A DNA stretch of 64,000 nucleotides, taken from the IMG/VR virus record IMGVR_UViG_2867207765_000001, positions 1 to 64,000 of that record, one strand, 5' to 3'. How positions within the stretch are numbered: position 1 is the first letter of the stretch; each line of letters opens with the position of its first letter. A program made the position numbers and the translations under genes. This DNA comes from a virus. Lineage: Duplodnaviria > Caudoviricetes. Below, piece after piece: positions 1 to 23,606 of the stretch. The notes beneath the pieces were generated by a model. The model saw only the letters and a program-made list of their open reading frames with translations. It was not told where the DNA came from and did not search any database.

Positions 1-1344
1 GCTCCGTTCTTCGAGGCGGACGAGGACGTGGTCGCCGGCGAGTACGAGCGTGTGCTGCTCAACTACCTCGGCCCGAACGACATCGGCTCGGACCACCTCC
101 GCGCGCTCCACCGTCTCGGCTACCTGCCGCTGCTGGTGAAGGGGCTCCCGGAGGGTTCCCTGGCACCGTTCGGCGTGCCAACCGTGCTCGTCGAGAACAC
201 GCACCCCGACTTCTTCTGGCTGCCGAACTACATCGAGACAGCGCTGTCAGCATCCATCTGGCACCCGTCCACGTCCGCGACGATCTCGACCATGTACCGC
301 GAGCTCATGGAGTCGTGGGCGGAGAAGACCGGCGGCGACCCCGCCGCCATCGACTTCCAAGCACACGACTTCTCGATGCGCGGGCAGACCAGCATCGAGT
401 CCGCAGCAGCATCCGGGGCTGGTCATCTGCTCTCGTTCCTCGGGACGGACAGCATCCCGTCCATCGACTTCATCGACCGGTACTACCCGGGCGACAACGG
501 CTGGGTCGCCGCATCCGTGCCTGCCACAGAGCACTCGGTGATGTGCCTCCGAGGCCAGGAAGGCGAACTCGAGACGTTCTCACGCCTGCTCGACCTGTAC
601 CCTGCCGGCATCGTTTCCGCAGTCGCCGACGGGTACGACTTCTTCGCCGTGCTCACCGAGATCCTGCCCACCCTCAAGAGCAAGATTCTCGCCCGCGACG
701 GCAAGCTCGTCATCCGACCCGACTCCGGCGACCCGGTCGACATCATGACCGGCACGTACGTCGTCACCGACGACAACCGTGCCGAATACGAGGCGAAGAA
801 GGCCGCCGGCACGCTCACCGTCGAGGAACTCGGCCCCATCGAGCTGCTCGACCAGGTGTTTGGCCACACCGTCAACGCCAAGGGCTTCAAGGTCCTCGAC
901 CAGCACATCGGCCTCATCTACGGCGACAGCATCACCCTCGACCGCGCCCAGCGCACCTTCGAACGCCTCGCCGCGAAGGGCTGGGCGTCCACCAACGTCG
1001 TCCTCGGCATCGGTTCGTTCACCTTCCAGTACACGACCCGCGACTCGCTGGGCTCGGCCGTGAAGGCGACCTGGGCCGAGGTGGACGGACGAGGCGTCGA
1101 CATCCAGAAGGACCCGAAGACGGGCAGCGGCAAGAAGTCGGCAAAGGGTCGCCTCGCGGTGATCCTCGGCGACGACGGCGAGAAGGTCCTCGTCGAGCAG
1201 GCGACCCCCGAGGACGAGGCACGCAGCCTCATCCAGCCGGTCTGGAAGGACGGCGAGTTCATCAACCCGGTGTCCTTCGCCGACGTTCGCAACACACTCC
1301 GTGCGGAGCGCGCCGCCCGAGCCACACGTCGAGCCGCCGCGTGA
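1..1344 (+). CDS. nadV: Nicotinamide phosphoribosyltransferase (NAMPT), 5' truncated by window
   Basis: Motifs HDFSMRG, SVPATEHSVMC, LVIRPDSGDP, GLIYGDSITL, KDPKT..KKSAKG. Confidence 0.95.
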   Translation, partial: APFFEADEDVVAGEYERVLLNYLGPNDIGSDHLRALHRLGYLPLLVKGLPEGSLAPFGVPTVLVENTHPDFFWLPNYIETALSASIWHPSTSATISTMYRELMESWAEKTGGDPAAIDFQAHDFSMRGQTSIESAAASGAGHLLSFLGTDSIPSIDFIDRYYPGDNGWVAASVPATEHSVMCLRGQEGELETFSRLLDLYPAGIVSAVADGYDFFAVLTEILPTLKSKILARDGKLVIRPDSGDPVDIMTGTYVVTDDNRAEYEAKKAAGTLTVEELGPIELLDQVFGHTVNAKGFKVLDQHIGLIYGDSITLDRAQRTFERLAAKGWASTNVVLGIGSFTFQYTTRDSLGSAVKATWAEVDGRGVDIQKDPKTGSGKKSAKGRLAVILGDDGEKVLVEQATPEDEARSLIQPVWKDGEFINPVSFADVRNTLRAERAARATRRAAA

Positions 1345-1754
1345 ACGACCGCATCTACGGGTTCACGGATGCCGATCACTTCCTGTCGAACTTCCACGTG
1401 GAGGCGGACGGACTGACGGCGGAACACCGGTTCCAGAGCGCGAAGACCTTCTCGCCGGCCTGGATCCGACGCGTGCTGTCCGCTCCGACCCCCGCCAAAG
1501 CGAAGTACCACGGCAGGTCGCTGCCGCTCCGCCCCGATTGGGAGGAGGCGAAGGTCGGAGTGATGCGCCACATCGTCGCGACGAAGTTCACCGACGCCGA
1601 CCTCGCCGACCGCCTCCTCGCAACCGGTCACGCCGAACTCATCGAAGCGAACACCTGGGGCGACCGCACCTGGGGCGTGGACGCGAACACGGGTGAGGGG
1701 CGGAACCTCCTCGGCCGGATCCTCATGGAGACGCGCACCGCCCTCCGCGCATAA
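1341..1754 (+). CDS. NADAR (YbiA-like) family protein
   Basis: FLSNF, EHRFQSAK, LLATG.AELIEANTWGDRTWGV, GRNLLGRILMETR; GTG start overlaps nadV stop. Confidence 0.9.
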   Translation: MNDRIYGFTDADHFLSNFHVEADGLTAEHRFQSAKTFSPAWIRRVLSAPTPAKAKYHGRSLPLRPDWEEAKVGVMRHIVATKFTDADLADRLLATGHAELIEANTWGDRTWGVDANTGEGRNLLGRILMETRTALRA

Positions 1755-1875
1755 CCGGAACGGAGTCGCCCGGCGCACCACCTGCGCGGCGACTGACGCT
1801 TCTCAACGCAGGTGAGCATGCTTCTCACCGTTGAGATGGAGCGCTGCAGGAAATGACGCGCGGCGACGGCGGTGT

Positions 1876-1885
1876 CCGCGCATAG
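1876..1885 (+). promoter_or_regulatory. Class A motif CCGCGCATAG (representative of ~34 copies)
   Basis: See findings; 7 nt before tnpB GTG. Confidence 0.8.
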
Positions 1886-1892
1886 AGGGGAT

Positions 1893-3434
1893 GTGAGCGG
1901 TTCGACGTTGCGGGATGCGACGGCACCTGGTGGTGTCGGGTCACGTCAGCGTGCCTACCGGTTCGCGCTTGACCCGACCCCTGCGCAGGTTCGGGCGCTG
2001 TTGTCCCACGCGGGCGCGGCGCGGGTGGCGTTCAACACGATGCTCGCCGTGGTGCGGGCGAACCTGGACCAGCGGACCGCGGAACGCTCCTACGGCGTCC
2101 CCGACGCGGACCTGACCCCGTCCCTGTCCTGGTCGAAAGTCAGTCTCCGGAATGGGTGGGTGGCGCGGCGGGATACGGTCGCACCGTGGTGGCCGGAGAA
2201 CGCCCGGGAGGCATACACGTCCGGCTGCTTCGCCCTCGCCGCAGCGCTCGACAACTGGTCCAAGTCGCGCAGCGGCGCGCGGGCTGGCGCGCCGGTCGGG
2301 TTCCCGCGGTTCAAGACCCGGACCCGGTCGAAGCCGTCCGTGAAGTTCGAAGGCGTCACCGCGAAGCTGCTCCCGTCCGGCCACACCATTCACTTGCCGC
2401 GTGTCGGGAAGGTGCACACCCACGAGTCCACCCGGAAGCTCGGCCGGCTCGTGGAGCAGGGCTCCGCGAAGGTGAACTCCGTCACCGTCTCCTACGACCG
2501 CGGCCGGTGGGTTGCCGCGTTCCAGGTCGAGCAGGTCACCATCGTCCGGCCCCGGCCGGTGGGTCCGCGGTCGGTGGTGGGTATCGACGTGGGGGTGAAG
2601 GACCTCATCGTCGTTGCTCGCCCGGACGGCACCGAGGTGGAACGGCTCCGCGCCCCGAAGGACCTCGCCGCTGCCCTCGGCCGGCTTCGCACCCTGCAGC
2701 GGCAGGCCGCCCGGCAGGTCGGCCCGTACGACGTCGTGTCCAAGCGGCGGCAGCAGCCATCCGCGGGCTGGCTGCGAACACAGGACCGCATCCGGAAGGT
2801 GCACGCTCGGGTGGCGAACCTCCGGCAGGACCGGCTCCACAAGCTCACCACCCGACTCGCGCAGACGCACGACGTGGTCGGCATCGAACACCTCAACGTC
2901 CGAGGGATGACCGCGCGCGCGAAGCCGAAGCCGCACACGAGCCGGCCGGGAGTGTTTCTGCCGAACCGGCGGCGGCAGAAGGCCGGACTTGCCCGGTCCG
3001 TCGCGGACGCCGGGTTCGCGACGCTGCACCAGCAGCTGCAGTACAAGACGTCCTGGTTCGGGAGCACCCTGGTGCGCGCGGACCGGTTCTACCCGTCCTC
3101 CAAAACATGCTCCGGATGCGGGTCAGTGAAAGCCAAGCTGACCCTCGCCGAGCGGGAGTACGTGTGCACCACCTGCGGCATGGTCATCGACCGTGACCTC
3201 AACGCCGCAGTCAACCTCGCCCGCCACGCAGCAGCACAAGCGGCCGAGAACGGTCCGGACGAGGGTAGCTCGTTCGTCAGCGGTGGAGGCACCCAGAAGA
3301 CCCAGCCAGCAACAGCCGGCACGGGCAGGAGCCAACGAAACCGCAACCCCACCAGCACCACGGGGACTCCCTCGCCGCAAGGCCAGGGCAGCACTCAACC
3401 CAGTGAGACCAGTCTCACCTCAGTTGAGAACTGA
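1893..3434 (+). CDS. tnpB: RNA-guided endonuclease TnpB (IS607-type sequence)
   Basis: AYRFALDPT N-terminus, RuvC motifs GIDVG / GIEHL / DRDLNAAVNL, Zn finger CSGC..CTTC; GTG start 7 nt after CGCATAG motif. Confidence 0.95.
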   Translation: MSGSTLRDATAPGGVGSRQRAYRFALDPTPAQVRALLSHAGAARVAFNTMLAVVRANLDQRTAERSYGVPDADLTPSLSWSKVSLRNGWVARRDTVAPWWPENAREAYTSGCFALAAALDNWSKSRSGARAGAPVGFPRFKTRTRSKPSVKFEGVTAKLLPSGHTIHLPRVGKVHTHESTRKLGRLVEQGSAKVNSVTVSYDRGRWVAAFQVEQVTIVRPRPVGPRSVVGIDVGVKDLIVVARPDGTEVERLRAPKDLAAALGRLRTLQRQAARQVGPYDVVSKRRQQPSAGWLRTQDRIRKVHARVANLRQDRLHKLTTRLAQTHDVVGIEHLNVRGMTARAKPKPHTSRPGVFLPNRRRQKAGLARSVADAGFATLHQQLQYKTSWFGSTLVRADRFYPSSKTCSGCGSVKAKLTLAEREYVCTTCGMVIDRDLNAAVNLARHAAAQAAENGPDEGSSFVSGGGTQKTQPATAGTGRSQRNRNPTSTTGTPSPQGQGSTQPSETSLTSVEN

Positions 3435-3484
3435 CAGCGACCCCGTAACGTCGTCACCGCACCCCAAGCACAGGAAGCATTCAC

Positions 3485-4126
3485 GTGACCGACCGTCAGC
3501 AGCCCCTCATTGCCATCGACGTCGTCCCCATCGGGTACGACGCCGCGTCGATGACGGTGCAGTACGGCACCGCGGAGCGGCTGTTCGCCCCCTTCGCGGG
3601 AGAGCAAGCGCTGCCCGGCGTGCTCCTCGGCGCTGATGAGTTGCTCACCGAAGCAGCCCACCGCGCCCTCCGCGACAAAGCCGGCGTCCCAGCAGGGGAC
3701 GTCCGGCATCTGACGCAGATCGGAGCATTCGACGGTCCCGGCCGCGACCCCCGCGACAAGGCCGTCAGCATCGCGTTCATCGCCATTGTCACGTCGCACG
3801 ACACCTTCGAACTCGGATGGCACGAATGGGCAGAAACACCCTCCCTTCCATTCGACCACGGCACCATCGTCGCGGCCGCGAAAGACGTCGCCCGCACCCG
3901 ACTGTGGACCGACCCAGCGTTCACTCAAGCGCTCACCGGCGACACCTTCCTCACCGCCGACGCCGCCGCCATCACCAGCCAGGTCACCGGACACACTCCC
4001 GCCCCCGCCAACTTCCACAGAACCCTCACCCGGAACCCAGCCCTCACATCTGAGCAACGGACTCAGGGCGGCGCTCACGGACGCAGCATGACCCAGTGGG
4101 CGTGGGCCGGGGCGCTGAGGCCCTAA
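3485..4126 (+). CDS. NUDIX-domain protein, NrtR-like regulator (NUDIX + C-terminal HTH)
   Basis: ALPGVLL..DE.L.EAA.R.L, F..PGRDPR, LPFDH, ANFHR; adjacent to NAD salvage genes. Confidence 0.8.
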   Translation: MTDRQQPLIAIDVVPIGYDAASMTVQYGTAERLFAPFAGEQALPGVLLGADELLTEAAHRALRDKAGVPAGDVRHLTQIGAFDGPGRDPRDKAVSIAFIAIVTSHDTFELGWHEWAETPSLPFDHGTIVAAAKDVARTRLWTDPAFTQALTGDTFLTADAAAITSQVTGHTPAPANFHRTLTRNPALTSEQRTQGGAHGRSMTQWAWAGALRP

Positions 4127-4130
4127 CGGC

Positions 4131-4757
4131 TTACGTTCGCCGTCCCAGCAACCAAGCGACAACGTCCGGGTCCGCCGCCATCCATCTGCGGCCGCCCAAG
4201 GAGACGGCTCGGAGCGAGACGCCGGCGTCGAGTTCCTTCGCCAACGGACGTGCCATCCGCTTGTTGACGTAGCCGACGGGGCCTGCGTCGGCGTGCACGC
4301 ACACGGCGTACGGGTCTGCTTCATTGTCGGGTTCTCGGACGAGGCTGAGCGCTGCACCCGGAGACAGATCCGCGTGCTTGATAATCAGCGCAAGATACTC
4401 GGTGCCGCGCAGCTGCCCCGTCCACAGCCCCAGGCTCCGGAGCTTCCCGTTCGCAACGTTGACGAGCTGCCCCGTCGTCTCCTCCTCGAACCACAACGCC
4501 TGGTCATGCATACGGAGACGGAACGGCGGGCGACCGTCAGCTCTGGGCACCAGCAACGCATCCCACCGCTCCGACGGCAGGTAGATGCTCGGTGGGGGAG
4601 TGCGCGGCACGGAAACGGACACCGGTGGCAGCCCTGTTGCGGGTCGCGGCGGGCTCGGCTTCGGCTGCAACGCCGTCGTCTGAGCTGTCTGCGGAGCCGG
4701 GACCACAGCCCTGGTGCGTGACCGGCGGCGGAACAGGTCGAAGAAACCCACGCTCAT
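4131..4757 (-). CDS. HIRAN-domain protein
   Basis: C-terminal LSLVREPDNEADPYAVCVH...VGYV..LA..LD.G. Confidence 0.75.
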   Translation of the reverse strand: MSVGFFDLFRRRSRTRAVVPAPQTAQTTALQPKPSPPRPATGLPPVSVSVPRTPPPSIYLPSERWDALLVPRADGRPPFRLRMHDQALWFEEETTGQLVNVANGKLRSLGLWTGQLRGTEYLALIIKHADLSPGAALSLVREPDNEADPYAVCVHADAGPVGYVNKRMARPLAKELDAGVSLRAVSLGGRRWMAADPDVVAWLLGRRT

Positions 4758-15166: not shown

Positions 15167-15322
15167 ATATAGCGATGACGGCGGTCGCCCCTGGCGAACC
15201 TCTCGGCATCACCTCTATGCGCGGACGACAGCGAATCCATGCACTGCTTCCTCTTTCTCGCCGCATCAGCAGGAGCTGTCCCCGCCACCGCGCCGGACGA
15301 ACCCACGCCCGGAGCAGCCCCG

Positions 15323-19290: not shown

Positions 19291-19656
19291 TCAGTCCCGG
19301 AACTCCAACCGCAGCCCCAGCGACTCCGCCTGCCGTTCAAACTCCGGCCACAGCCACGACGGCACCGCCGCTTCAGCGCCGCGACCGTCACCGGCGAACA
19401 CCTGTGCCGCCTGCCGAAGTGTTTCCACCTCCCGCAGCAGATTCGTCCGCATCGGCTCGGGCGCGTTCTTCGCGTACTCCTCACGCCCCTTCGCCAACGT
19501 CAGTAGCAGCAGCGACGAACGGAGGAACGCATCCTCACCTGCAGTCGATGACGCCTGCGCGGCGTGCGCGGCACGGAACCGTTCCGCTGCCTCCGCCTCA
19601 TCTGCGTCCGCTCGACGCACCATCCGAGCAAGGTACGGCGGCATGTCATCAGTCAT
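19291..19656 (-). CDS. Hypothetical protein
   Basis: ATG 8 nt after GGCATAG motif. Confidence 0.6.
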   Translation of the reverse strand: MTDDMPPYLARMVRRADADEAEAAERFRAAHAAQASSTAGEDAFLRSSLLLLTLAKGREEYAKNAPEPMRTNLLREVETLRQAAQVFAGDGRGAEAAVPSWLWPEFERQAESLGLRLEFRD

Positions 19657-19681
19657 GCGGGTCCCTATGCCGCGGCGCCGG

Positions 19682-20002
19682 TCAGTGCTCGTCGCCCACG
19701 AAGCGGGTGCCCGCGGGAACGGTGACGATGAGCGCCGGGTCGGAGTCGCGGTCCGGCCGCTTCGTGAACCGGATGGGCCACGACGGGAACGTGCCCGTGT
19801 TCCGGATGGCGATGGTCCAATCGGCGTCGCTGTCCCGGCGGCCGAACTCCACATCCACGATGAGCGAGCCGCCGTCCGAGCCGATGAACCTCCCCGACCA
19901 CGGACCGTACACGTTGAACTCATCAGCCCCTGGAATCCTGCCTTCGACTTCAACGAGGTCGTCGGACGCGCCGTAGATCAGAACGTCGATGGTGTCGGTC
20001 AT
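19682..20002 (-). CDS. Hypothetical phage-like protein
   Basis: IYGASDDLVEVEG...EF; GAAAGG RBS. Confidence 0.7.
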   Translation of the reverse strand: MTDTIDVLIYGASDDLVEVEGRIPGADEFNVYGPWSGRFIGSDGGSLIVDVEFGRRDSDADWTIAIRNTGTFPSWPIRFTKRPDRDSDPALIVTVPAGTRFVGDEH

Positions 20003-20208
20003 GCGGTCGGCCTTTCAAGGGGAGATGGACGGCCTTCGACGGCGTCGCGGCGCGCGGACGCAAGCCCGTACCGGATGGCACCGCCGACGGACTTCCGATA
20101 CCAAGGGGAGGCGCACCGCAGCGCCACGGAAGCGACCAGGTACGCGACGTGGTCGCGGGTTTTCCCGAACCATGTGTTTGGCGGTGTCGGCAGGGGGTGT
20201 TCTCTCAT
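19999..20208 (-). CDS. Hypothetical protein
   Basis: ATG 8 nt after CGCATAG; stop overlaps next start. Confidence 0.5.
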   Translation of the reverse strand: MREHPLPTPPNTWFGKTRDHVAYLVASVALRCASPWYRKSVGGAIRYGLASARRDAVEGRPSPLERPTA

Positions 20209-20355
20209 GCACGCTTCTATGCGGCGGTCGCAAAGCGTGGGGCGGGATCCGCGCATAGAGCCACAGACAGTCGAGGACACCGCCATGACGAATCTGCACG
20301 AGGGCATCCGCGCCTGGGCGAAGGGCATCTACCCGACCGAGGCCGCGGCGGAGCT

Positions 20356-22000
20356 TGACGCTTCTCAACGCAGGTGAGCATGCTTCTCGCCGCTGAGACG
20401 GAGCGCTGCGGGCGGTACGCGCGGCTCGTGCGTTGTCCGCGCATAGAGGGGGTGTGAGCGGTTCGGCGTTGCGGGAGGCGACGGCACCTGGTGGTGCTGG
20501 GTCGCATCAGCGTGCGTACCGGTTTGCACTGGACCCGACCCCCGCGCAGGTTCGGGCGCTGCTGTCTCACGCGGGCGCGGCGCGGGTGGCGTTCAACACG
20601 ATGCTCGCCGTGGTGCGGGCGAACCTGGACCAGCGGACCGCCGAACGCTCCTACGGGATCCCCGACGTGGAGCTGACCCCGTCCCTGTCCTGGTCGAAAG
20701 TCAGTCTCCGGAATGGGTGGGTGGCGCGGCGGGATACGGTGGCGCCGTGGTGGCCGGAGAACGCCCGGGAGGCATACACGTCCGGCTGCTTCGCCCTCGC
20801 CGCAGCGCTAGACAACTGGTCGAAGTCGCGGAACGGTGCGCGGGCTGGCGCGCCGGTCGGGTTCCCACGGTTCAAGTCCCGGACCCGGTCGAAGCCGTCG
20901 GTGAAGTTCGAAGGCGTCACCGCGAAGCTGCTGCCCACCGGGCACACCATTCACTTGCCGCGCATCGGGAAGGTGCACACCCACGAATCCACCCGGAAGC
21001 TCGGCCGGCTCGTGGAAGCGGGGCAGGCGAAGGTGAACTCCGTCACCGTCTCCTACGACCGCGGCCGGTGGTTCGCCGCGTTCCAGGTCGAGCAGGTCGC
21101 CATCGTCCGGCCGCGACCGCTCGGCCCGAAGTCCGTGGTCGGTATCGACGTGGGGGTGAAGGACCTCATCGTTGTCGCTCGCCCCGACGGCTCCGAAGTG
21201 GAACGGCTCCGCGCCCCGAAGGACCTCGCGAAAGCCGCCGCGACTCTAAAGGCACTGCAGCGGCAGGCCGCCCGTCAGGTCGGCCCCTACGACGTCGTGT
21301 CCAAGCGGCGGCAGCAGCCATCCGCGGGCTGGCTACGCACGCAGGCGCGCATCCGAAAGGTGCACGCCCGGGTCGCGAACCTCCGCGCCGACCGGCTCCA
21401 CAAACTCACCACCCGACTCGCACGCGAGTTCGATGTGGTCGGCATCGAGCACCTCAACGTCCGAGGGATGCTGGCGCGTGCGAAGCCGAAGCCGCATCCG
21501 AGCCGGCCGGGGGTGTTCCTGCCGAACCGGCGGCGGCAGAAGTCCGGACTCGCCCGGTCCGTCGCCAACGCATCCTTCTCGACGCTGCATCAGCAGCTGC
21601 AGTACAAGACGTCCTGGTTCGGGAGCACCCTGGTGCGCGCGGACCGGTTCTACCCGTCCTCCAAAACATGCTCCGGATGCGGGTCAGTGAAAGCCAAGCT
21701 GACCCTCGCCGAGCGGGAGTACGTGTGCACCACCTGCGGCATGGTCATCGACCGTGACCTCAACGCCGCAGTCAACCTCGCCCGCCACGCAGCAGCGTCG
21801 GTAGCGGAGGAGTCAGGTCCGGACGAGGGTAGCTCGTTCGTCAGCGGTGGAGGCACCCAGAAGCCCCAGCCAGCAGCAGCCGGCACGGGCAGGAGCCAAC
21901 GAAACCGCAACCCCACCAGCACCACGGGGACTCCCTCGCCGCAAGGCCAGGGCAGCACTCAACCCAGTGAGACCAGTCTCACCCCAGTTGAGAACTGACA
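20356..22000 (+). mobile_element. tnpB-only insertion element, copy 2 (5-bp TSD GAGCT)
   Basis: GAGCT at 20351-20355 and 22001-22005; termini TGACGCTTCTCAAC ... GTTGAGAACTGACA. Confidence 0.92.
20454..21998 (+). CDS. tnpB: RNA-guided endonuclease TnpB (IS607-type sequence)
   Basis: Paralog of 1893-3434 with intact RuvC D/E/D and Zn finger. Confidence 0.95.
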   Translation: MSGSALREATAPGGAGSHQRAYRFALDPTPAQVRALLSHAGAARVAFNTMLAVVRANLDQRTAERSYGIPDVELTPSLSWSKVSLRNGWVARRDTVAPWWPENAREAYTSGCFALAAALDNWSKSRNGARAGAPVGFPRFKSRTRSKPSVKFEGVTAKLLPTGHTIHLPRIGKVHTHESTRKLGRLVEAGQAKVNSVTVSYDRGRWFAAFQVEQVAIVRPRPLGPKSVVGIDVGVKDLIVVARPDGSEVERLRAPKDLAKAAATLKALQRQAARQVGPYDVVSKRRQQPSAGWLRTQARIRKVHARVANLRADRLHKLTTRLAREFDVVGIEHLNVRGMLARAKPKPHPSRPGVFLPNRRRQKSGLARSVANASFSTLHQQLQYKTSWFGSTLVRADRFYPSSKTCSGCGSVKAKLTLAEREYVCTTCGMVIDRDLNAAVNLARHAAASVAEESGPDEGSSFVSGGGTQKPQPAAAGTGRSQRNRNPTSTTGTPSPQGQGSTQPSETSLTPVEN

Positions 22001-22470
22001 GAGCTCCTCATCCGCACCGGCCTCGCCACCGACGACGCACCCTTCTACAGCGAGACCGACGGTCCGTTCACCGAAGTTCGCGCCGACAAGATCCTCAACG
22101 TCGCCCGGAACTACTCCCACAGCCAGGAGAAGATCCTGCGCCTCGTCGTCTCCCTCCTCGGCAAAGCCGACGTGAACCTCCGAGACGCATTCCGAGGGCT
22201 CGACCGCGCCAACCTCCACGTGGCGCTCGCCGCCATCAGCCACGCCACCGGCGCCCACGAGATGTTCGACAAGGCGAACACGCCGCACCCCAGCGAAGGT
22301 GGACCCGTCGTCGCGTGGCCGACCATCTGAAGCCAGGACCCACGAAGCGGCCCGCCGAACCCGGCAGAGCGCGTCGTCCCGCGTCGAGCGAGACGGTGAG
22401 GCACGACAGGTGAGTCCCCGAAACGTCGCCGTTCCCCTGACATGTCGGCGGCTGCTGCGACGATGTGCGG

Positions 22471-22854
22471 ATGGCTTTCATCGAACACAACCGCGGTCTC
22501 CGTCACCAGTTCACGAACGCCGGCGCTCGCCGTGCAGCCCTTGAACAGGCCGGAGACGCGATCGTCAAGGCGCTCCCGGACGCCGCGAACCGCTTCGCCG
22601 CGATCACCAAGGCGTCCTCCACCGCAAAGAGCGACGATCTGCGCGACGCCTGGGACGCCATCGGCGACGGCGCCAGCAAGGGGCACATCCACGTCTTCGA
22701 CGGCTCGGGCGAGAACGAAGTCAACGCTCGACTGTGGTTCGACGAGGCGTTCGAGAACGGCGTTGTGCAGGGGTACGTCCGAGGTGCAGACAAGGCGCAG
22801 GTCGACGAACTCGCCGCCGCGCTCGAGGCGATCTTCGCGGAGCACGCCGCCTAG
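22471..22854 (+). CDS. Hypothetical protein
   Basis: Coding-like composition. Confidence 0.6.
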   Translation: MAFIEHNRGLRHQFTNAGARRAALEQAGDAIVKALPDAANRFAAITKASSTAKSDDLRDAWDAIGDGASKGHIHVFDGSGENEVNARLWFDEAFENGVVQGYVRGADKAQVDELAAALEAIFAEHAA

Positions 22855-22923
22855 CGAGTGCTCGTTCAGAAGGGCCCGGAACTGCTCGTGCTCGCCCGGC
22901 CCTTCTCCGCTGCGCAGCGCCAG

Positions 22924-22933
22924 CCGCGCACAT
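22924..22933 (+). promoter_or_regulatory. Class B motif CCGCGCACAT (representative of 8 copies)
   Basis: See findings; exactly 7 nt before start codon. Confidence 0.8.
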
Positions 22934-22940
22934 CACAGGC

Positions 22941-23606
22941 ATGACGACCTGGAACGCAGCCGACCACCTCCGCGCCGGTCAAGTCGGCGTCCCTGGCAAC
23001 GCCGGGTCCTTCGCCGGGAAGCGGAACACTGGCGACGACGTCACCCTGCTCGCCCCAGCCGCCGCGTCCGCGGACCCGTTCGCGTTGACCGCGGGTGAGG
23101 ACCGCCGCCGGAAGCGTCGCATCCGCACCGGGGACCGTCCCGACACCGTCACGTGGCGTCCCTCGGACTCCCTCGGCCCCATCCAGTTCGACCGCGGCGG
23201 GCAGGTTGCCGAGCTGACGCTCAAGAGCGTTCTCGTGTTCGCCCCAGAGCAGGGCACCGCCGGCGACACCTGGACCATCAGCCGCGCCAGCATCGAGGAC
23301 CTCGAGGCGCACATCGCACCCGACGAGGACGGCGGACCGTACGCCGCGGCGCTGTTCGACATGCTCGTTCAACGCGGCGCGCTGCGCCCACTCGACGACG
23401 CCGAGCGTGCGAAACTCGGCCCGCAGTACGCCGCAACACAGCGGAAGCAGGGGTCCTTTCACAACGACGAGCAGATGCGCCGGCAGGTCGAGAACCTTCA
23501 CGTCGTCAACCGGGACGCCGTGCTCGCCATTTACCCGGAGCTCACCAAGAACGGCGCCGGATGGCGCACCTACGCCGAACAGACCGGGTCACCGATCTGG
23601 AAGTAG
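22941..23606 (+). CDS. Leader-motif protein 1 (hypothetical)
   Basis: N-term MTTWNAADHLRAGQVGVPGNAGSFAGKRNTGDDVTL; CCGCGCACAT-N7-ATG. Confidence 0.8.
   Translation: MTTWNAADHLRAGQVGVPGNAGSFAGKRNTGDDVTLLAPAAASADPFALTAGEDRRRKRRIRTGDRPDTVTWRPSDSLGPIQFDRGGQVAELTLKSVLVFAPEQGTAGDTWTISRASIEDLEAHIAPDEDGGPYAAALFDMLVQRGALRPLDDAERAKLGPQYAATQRKQGSFHNDEQMRRQVENLHVVNRDAVLAIYPELTKNGAGWRTYAEQTGSPIWK

Follow-up and report, generated by a model that had tools for sequence, protein, structure and literature searches.

An IS607-type TnpB gene between TG...CA inverted ends and 5-bp target-site duplications on Curtobacterium megaplasmids

What moves a tnpB gene that lies between TG...CA inverted ends and 5-bp direct repeats, in an element with no transposase gene of its own? 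The question is posed by a 64,000-nucleotide stretch of DNA (the window; positions 1 to 64,000 of the IMG/VR virus record IMGVR_UViG_2867207765_000001), in which an earlier note, made from the sequence alone, had picked out two copies of such an element and proposed that an IS607-type TnpB had been captured by, or was mobilised in trans by, a different, DDE-like transposition chemistry. We have followed up this proposal computationally. The 5-bp duplication is genuine, and our best reading, held with moderate confidence, is that a staggered-cut chemistry other than that of IS607 itself moves this IS607-derived TnpB.

Copies, empty sites and the 5-bp duplication

Copy 1 of the element occupies positions 1794–3436 (1,643 bp), starts TGACGCTTCTCAAC and ends GTTGAGAACTGACA, and is bounded by GCGAC on the left (1789–1793) and on the right (3437–3441). 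Copy 2, on the plus strand at 20356–22000 (1,645 bp), is 91% identical to copy 1 and lies between GAGCT and GAGCT. The boundaries and the two perfect repeats given in the earlier note were confirmed, strings and coordinates alike. When the two copies are aligned together with their flanks, homology opens at TGACGCTTCTC and closes at ...GAACTGACA followed by one common G.

Copy 1 and the adjoining 1 kb to either side of it (794–4436) are 100% identical to NZ_CP126274.1, the 607,661-bp plasmid D40 of Curtobacterium sp. MCBD17_040, and the copy-2 region (19356–23000) is 99.3% identical to it; copy 2 measures 1,642 bp in that record as against 1,645 bp in the window, probably an assembly difference within a repeated stretch. 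The 94,513-base record that holds the window has only these two copies, plus a 32-nt match that corresponds to the promoter-like motif described below. D40 carries five full copies, with pairwise identities of 90–96%, and one 120-bp left-end remnant; in a comparison of the plasmid with itself, the element was the sole one present in more than two copies. An internally deleted derivative of 272 bp, at 174,505–174,776 of the C. pusillum plasmid CP018784.1, retains, besides the promoter motif, 42 nt of the left end and the final 121 nt, with both ends kept.

The left and right 5-mers of the five D40 copies are GCGAC/GCGAC, CCGAG/GCGAG, GTTAG/GTTAG, GAGCT/GAGCT and GTGAC/GTACC, the last pair being compatible with a 1-base deletion in the right 5-mer. 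The derivative, which is the sixth insertion, is flanked perfectly by GCCGC/GCCGC. Further copies thus bear out the duplication: among six independent insertions the 5-mers match at 5/5 positions in four, at 4/5 in one and at 3/5 in one, where an identical pair would arise by chance at this base composition with a probability of 0.0017 per site.

Evidence from empty sites comes from copy 2, which interrupts a conserved gene for a protein of 136 amino acids and unknown function. The 5' part of this gene lies at 20285–20355 (plus strand), its last five bases (20351–20355, GAGCT) being the left duplication; the 3' part lies at 22001–22330 (plus strand), where the first five bases, GAGCT, are the right duplication and a 109-codon open frame remains. 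The gene is whole in NZ_CP126255.1 (plasmid pS16) and CP018784.1, and at the empty site both have the 5-mer singly, as GAGCT or GAACT. Translated, the whole genes give ...EAAVELLIRTG... and ...EAATELLIRAG..., where the window has a left fragment that stops at ...EAAAE + CT and a right fragment that opens with ELLIRTG. Because two related plasmids hold the site uninterrupted with the 5-mer present once, the duplication must be real, and we conclude that a 5-bp target-site duplication (TSD) of variable sequence is genuine in this element and single in empty sites. Empty alleles that keep a doubled 5-mer, which the earlier note had set beforehand as fatal to its proposal, are not what these plasmids contain.

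The intergenic flanks of copy 1 have diverged so far in the two related plasmids that the junction cannot be located there; contigs from three other sequencing runs join the copy-1 flanks without the element, a hint only, as the intervening sequence is not known. The flanks of the copies at 322, 532 and 224 kb of NZ_CP126274.1 are rearranged, one-sided or absent in relatives, and empty sites were not recovered for them.

Decayed solitary ends, one of left-end and two of right-end type, lie at 198,105 and 213,991 of D40 and at 132,982 of pS16, and show older insertions within these megaplasmids. From the solitary end at 198,105 to the copy at 226,039 there are 28 kb, a segment that was considered as a composite element and rejected, as the flanking 5-mers differ. 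Mosaic blocks of variants run through the five copies (AQTHDVVG as opposed to AREFDVVG, and KGA-LVPTGH), each grouping a different set of copies, a pattern that suggests gene conversion between them. Although the window is filed as a provirus, it is part of a family of Curtobacterium megaplasmids of 545–608 kb, rich in hypothetical, TerD, nicotinamide adenine dinucleotide-salvage, nucleotide-metabolism and restriction genes. Searches for further copies gave 0 matches in phage records and 0 in a protein scan of viral contigs. Scans with patterns from the ends and from the right end returned, in viral contigs, 56 stretches, none with extended similarity, and in a further scan 0 stretches; in metagenome contigs they gave four, all attributable to chance.

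Inverted ends, the TnpB gene and its descent

The left end, with its TG tip (1794–1838, plus strand), carries the palindrome TCTCAAC-GCA-GGTGAG...CTCACC-GTTGAGA at 1801–1836. The right end, with its CA tip (3393–3436, plus strand), carries CTCAAC-CCA-GTGAGA..TCTCAC-CTCA-GTTGAG and includes the tnpB stop codon. Each end is thus itself a two-part palindrome, starting 7 nt from the tip. Together the ends form an imperfect terminal inverted repeat (TIR), as had been claimed, which by length (24 nt, 79%) tops the 34 inverted pairs of the region. If one indel is allowed, the left end of copy 1 matches its inverted right end at 33 of 45 positions, and the other copies have 26–32 matches. Random plasmid 44-mers scored equally in 0/2000 trials for three copies, copy 1 among them, in 1/2000 for one and in 5/2000 for one. 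The TG/CA tips are conserved in all 12 ends of the six insertions, and TG is also found in three solitary remnants.

The only gene of the element is tnpB. In copy 1 it runs from 1893 to 3434 on the plus strand (513 amino acids per the matching public record; frame open from 1872; GTG start) and in copy 2 from 20454 to 21998 on the same strand (514 amino acids). The left tip is separated from the GTG start of tnpB by 99 nt, and no serine-recombinase TnpA is encoded within the element. TnpB domains (PF12323, PF01385, PF07282) are all that Pfam finds there, with no other open reading frame family, so the statement that no transposase lies inside holds. So does the placing of the tnpB stop within the last 5 bp: the TGA of copy 1, at 3432–3434, ends two bases before the element does. 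The assignment to the IS607 type is upheld by the NCBIfam model NF038280 (IS607_TnpB), which scores 446.1 bits against a cut-off of 350; the IS200_TnpB model scores 183 bits, below its cut-off of 425.

The RuvC D/E/D motifs (GIDVG, GIEHLN, DRDLNAA), correctly described as intact, and the zinc ribbon CxxC...CxxC are kept in all five copies, and they align with those of solved TnpB structures. The tnpB frame is fully open in 5/5 copies and the ratio of nonsynonymous to synonymous divergence (dN/dS) in its core is 0.25, values that indicate purifying selection. Open frames, dN/dS and conserved motifs together predict a functional TnpB.

A putative omega-RNA scaffold, at 3230–3436 on the plus strand with an approximate 5' limit, overlaps the 3' end of tnpB, and its last stem-loop would be the right-end palindrome. 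This stretch folds at −77.6 kcal/mol, with a z of −2.67 relative to shuffled sequences. Synonymous divergence is 0.084 in the last 80 codons of tnpB and 0.18 in the core, which fits with an overlapping functional RNA. Rfam assigned no family within the element, its sole match being a chance one to a long non-coding RNA (E 0.55).

Just upstream of the gene, at 1878–1888 (plus strand) and 4 nt before the GTG start, lies the promoter-like motif GCGCATAGAGG. The 607-kb plasmid has 36 occurrences of this 11-mer, mostly with CC before it, where we estimate from base composition that ∼0.4 would be expected. Within the window it also stands at 20439–20449 and near 15222(−), 15795(+), 26330(−), 37036(−), 41649(−), 43736(−), 47036(−) and 50361(−), these positions being converted from plasmid coordinates (window = record − 417,248). 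It is often found 4–10 nt upstream of start codons, including those of both tnpB copies and of the TnpB-like gene of the plasmid's own IS607. The motif has the look of a promoter specific to the replicon, for mRNAs with a short leader or none, and the element appears to have taken it over.

The homologues of this TnpB fall into tiers of identity: 91–92% on the same plasmid, 82% for a pair of proteins from one C. citreum contig of 559,959 bp, 80–83% on two short metagenome or run contigs, 60–62% for two proteins, and 50–57% for the bulk of IS607 TnpBs. All proteins of at least 80% identity terminate in ...ETS.T..EN or ...GN, a peptide encoded by the right-end palindrome, and one 60% protein still ends ...LEN. 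Close homologues whose source is named by organism all lie on megaplasmid-sized contigs, with two others on short contigs. The relatives at 53–57%, together with mycobacterial plasmid relatives, are mostly canonical IS607 elements in which a serine tnpA overlaps the start of tnpB. Their right end reads ...CTCAC...GCTCACC...GGCAACGG and finishes ...AACGG; one mycobacterial plasmid copy that has no upstream tnpA also finishes ...CAACGG. Homology between the Curtobacterium right end and those of the relatives extends through ...GAGAAC, after which TGACA stands in place of their GG. We found no relative above 57% identity in sampled genomes (401 of the phylum and 401 of the class), and a scan of genome contigs yielded six loci, the best at 53%. 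The family of a genome chosen by similarity to the IS481 transposase of D40, represented by 17 genomes already sampled, gave one 66% match. On this sequence evidence, the element is shown to descend from IS607, most likely from a canonical element that lost its serine transposase gene.

How the element moves

On the reading that we favour, the element would be a non-autonomous transposon with one gene, an IS607-type TnpB plus a predicted omega-RNA, between imperfect TIRs of ∼45 bp tipped 5'-TG...CA-3'. The ends of the ancestral IS607 element would have been remodelled into a symmetric pair, and mobilisation would occur in trans through a transposase, most likely of the DDE/RNase-H fold, that attacks its target with a 5-bp stagger, followed by gap fill-in. 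TnpB and its RNA would then act as in other OMEGA elements by cutting the vacated site and leaving recombination to restore the element. The guide would begin at the duplicated 5-mer, with the conserved GCG immediately to the left of the duplication as the target-adjacent motif (TAM), and the right-end palindrome would, as in Fanzor elements, double as the final hairpin of the guide-RNA scaffold. Expression is apparently driven from the promoter motif common to many host megaplasmid genes.

The sites of insertion are consistent with such a role for the nuclease. GCG occupies positions −3 to −1 to the left of the duplication in 5/6 insertions (P 0.037 per site), and the duplication itself opens with G in 5/6 left and 6/6 right copies; in three more right-end junctions, from contigs of two other sequencing runs in which left junctions were not seen, G follows straight after TGACA. 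The asymmetric insertion preference, GCG|G, may be the TAM of the nuclease, and asymmetry would be expected because the sequence to the left of the element would be that TAM. After loss of the element, GCG, the 5-mer and the right flank would present a TAM plus a guide target, and in the occupied site the target would instead be preceded by ...TGACA. A parallel has been described in Fanzor elements, whose TSD and TIR enter the RNA scaffold or the TAM (PMC10711439, PMC13565253).

Several points weigh against the reading that we favour. The earlier note had suggested collecting more copies and an autonomous partner by means of the ends; that search produced the five copies, the derivative and the remnants, and no partner in the three megaplasmids (D40, pS16 and CP018784.1). 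With up to three mismatches, the hits of the end pattern in D40 were the five copies, at all ten ends, and two remnants, with no others; in the other two plasmids they were one remnant and the left end of the derivative; reversed-pattern controls gave 0. A transposase with matching ends was not found in the three megaplasmids, the host chromosome lying outside the search, and models for Tn3, Y1 (PF01797), DDE_Tnp_1, DDE_3 and DDE_5 had 0 matches in all three. The sole rve-domain gene across them belongs to an IS481 in D40 with ends unrelated to those of the element. A chromosomal partner would also sit oddly with close homologues that, wherever their source names an organism, lie on megaplasmid-sized contigs. 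The target motif lies on the left-end side only, with no mirror motif on the right; such asymmetry is typical of IS605/IS607 systems and unusual in a DDE enzyme. The ends are made of CTCAC/GTGAG-type repeats, like those of canonical IS607 relatives, and in their two-fold palindromic form they look more like the binding sites of dimeric helix-turn-helix proteins than like usual DDE ends. Finally, the copies differ from one another by 4–10%, which gives no sign of recent movement. Of the chemistry proposed in the earlier note, therefore, what stands is the set of traces it has left, that is, the TIRs, the TG...CA tips and a true 5-bp TSD; its DDE nature was not borne out, given that the three megaplasmids yielded no transposase with matching ends.

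Candidate partners on D40 did not hold up. The IS481, at ∼359,460–360,600 of NZ_CP126274.1, has TGTACTGCCCAGGG inverted ends and a 6-bp CCTAGC duplication; it sits just upstream of a gene that bears the GCGCATAGAGG motif. A canonical IS607 near 96 kb differs in its end repeats and finishes ...GGAACGG. It spans 96,041–98,390 and consists of a tnpA (96,041–96,664; 188 bits on NCBIfam transpos_IS607) followed by an overlapping gene for a 577-amino-acid protein with no Pfam match and a TnpB-family score of 42 bits, below cut-off. At 198.87 kb, a 15-nt match falls within a gene for a restriction enzyme and is due to chance. Resolvase-domain genes occur in D40 only, at three places outside the element, one of them being this canonical IS607 tnpA.

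That tnpA, or another serine transposase of IS607 type, could be supposed to act in trans, the 5-bp repeats being a by-product of an unusual crossover. The IS607 type of the TnpB speaks for this, as do the iterated CTCAC/GTGAG-like end motifs shared with canonical relatives and with the plasmid's own IS607, and the finding that, among the three megaplasmids, Resolvase-domain genes (including the IS607 tnpA) are present only in the one with full copies. The binding of IS607 TnpA to multiple subterminal repeats, described in PMC6188088, points the same way. However, no Resolvase match was obtained in the plasmids that harbour the derivative and remnants, the left-end repeat motifs of the plasmid's IS607 (GGTGAACGA) differ from those of the element, and the tips are TG...CA rather than GG. 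The empty sites prove a true doubling of the 5-mer. Serine recombination, being conservative, makes a 2-bp crossover and synthesises no DNA, and it is therefore unable to double five variable bases. Nor can TG or TGAC have been a site-specific crossover core, which predicts TGACA in the empty allele, where it is absent. The canonical GG-crossover reading of the junctions, raised as a counter-explanation in the earlier note, is accordingly incompatible with the empty allele. IS607 elements are, moreover, described in PMC6188088 as having neither TIRs nor TSDs. We consider a serine transposase very unlikely. An IS200/IS605 (IS1341-type) origin, in which a Y1 HUH transposase would recognise subterminal hairpins and move the element as single-stranded DNA, is more improbable still. 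Both ends can be folded into imperfect hairpins on the same strand, a TnpB-only content is that of the IS1341 group, and a short GCG motif is preferred on the left side only. Against this, the hairpins each stand 7 nt from the tip with TIR-like symmetry, the left 5-mers vary where elements of this group insert 3' of a constant 4–5-nt site, the IS200_TnpB score is 183 bits against a cut-off of 425, and Y1_Tnp found no match in the three plasmids (the chromosome being outside the search). Y1 elements, according to the portion of PMC4810608 that deals with them, insert without duplication, and here duplication is proven. Neither conservative serine transposition nor single-strand HUH transposition can be the source of these junctions.

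If no dedicated transposase exists, the element might enter staggered breaks made by TnpB or another nuclease, with fill-in and end joining giving the 5-bp repeats. TnpB/Cas12-type RuvC nucleases leave 5' overhangs of several bases, and the replicons on which the element lies yielded no partner transposase. The element's TG...CA tips are nevertheless precise and conserved and its TIRs 45 bp long, which points to protein recognition of the ends; a guide derived from the old flank is unable to specify a new site, and inspection of the flanks by eye found no common motif 15–25 bp upstream of the duplications, where the TAM of a TnpB cut would lie. We regard this as very improbable. The same low credence attaches to the bolder proposal that TnpB, whose RuvC domain has an RNase-H fold, itself excises and inserts the element, alone or with host repair, so that a separate transposase is not needed. 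Were it true, TnpB-driven movement would explain how five copies, a derivative and remnants come to lie on megaplasmids without a transposase with matching ends, and it would account for the link between insertion and a TAM-like, asymmetric GCG|G site with a 5-base stagger. Copying by segmental duplication or recombination rather than transposition, to which the mosaic variant blocks might be taken to point by way of gene conversion, is scarcely credible and already contradicted: homology ends exactly at the tips, the flanks bear no relation to one another, the 5-mer is particular to each copy and there is an empty allele.

Relation to known systems and significance

The element is most simply compared with its own family. 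IS607 elements (e.g. IS1535; loci L031, L034, L126 and L127) resemble it in IS607_TnpB score, in 53–57% TnpB identity, in CTCAC-type end repeats and in a 3' region and right end that are homologous up to ...GAGAAC; unlike them, it lacks tnpA and has TG...CA tips, 45-bp inverted ends and a 5-bp duplication. In the passages on IS607 in PMC6188088 and PMC13565253, members have neither TIRs nor TSDs and mostly GG ends. The combination of TG...CA ends with 5-bp TSDs is met with in Mu, Tn7, Tn5053/Tn402 and some IS3 and IS21 members. The element shares tip dinucleotides and duplication length with the Mu/Tn7/Tn5053 type, and differs in having palindromic ends rather than direct-repeat arrays, no linked ATPase genes and, in the three plasmids, no rve transposase with matching ends. 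The 272-bp form, with both ends and its perfect GCCGC, is like miniature inverted-repeat transposable elements and other internally deleted derivatives; unlike these, the main form keeps a selected protein gene.

The association of TnpB with DDE transposons in prokaryotes is already published, and an IS607-type TnpB with a 5-bp duplication and no linked transposase is a variant of it. The DDE partner families that have been named make 2–3-bp or TA duplications, not 5 bp. The part of PMC10691335 that treats DDE-linked TnpBs describes inverted ends in each of the six branches, together with solo TnpBs that lie between the ends of autonomous relatives and are thought to be mobilised in trans; partners are named as IS630, 'ISL2' and IS1031 in the corresponding part of PMC13565253. 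With these branches (DDE-1 to DDE-6, with IS630 and IS5-type partners; Altae-Tran et al. 2023, PMC10691335) the present element shares symmetric inverted ends around TnpB and the notion of solo TnpBs moved in trans. Unlike them, it has no DDE gene adjoining it, and none was found on its replicon. Capture of eukaryotic Fanzor nucleases by TIR/TSD transposons is likewise described in the portion of PMC10711439 concerned with it. Fanzor1 and Fanzor2* elements, as presented there, are alike in having an IS607-derived nuclease as the sole gene of a non-autonomous TIR/TSD element, with a TIR in the 3' RNA scaffold region. The present element differs from them in being bacterial and on a megaplasmid, with an ordinary IS607 TnpB and a 5-bp duplication. 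'Possibly undescribed', as the earlier note put it, was therefore an overstatement, given the DDE-linked and solo TnpBs of PMC10691335 and the Fanzor capture of PMC10711439, in the parts cited. Our literature search brought up no account of a bacterial TnpB of IS607 type that has TG...CA ends and a 5-bp duplication but lacks a linked transposase.

What this element appears to offer is a capture step like that of Fanzor, of an IS607 nuclease into a TIR/TSD transposon, inside bacteria. Its closest relatives are still ordinary IS607 elements, and the changes at its ends can therefore be read base by base. It provides a natural system in which to ask how a guide-RNA nuclease adapts to a carrier that duplicates its target: whether the duplication enters the guide, and whether the adjacent GCG is the TAM. 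The same system bears on the origin of an asymmetric target motif, through the transposase or through selection by the nuclease, and on the enzyme that recognises palindromic TG...CA ends and makes a 5-bp stagger. Should that partner prove new or unexpected, or should none be needed, the interest of the element would rise sharply.

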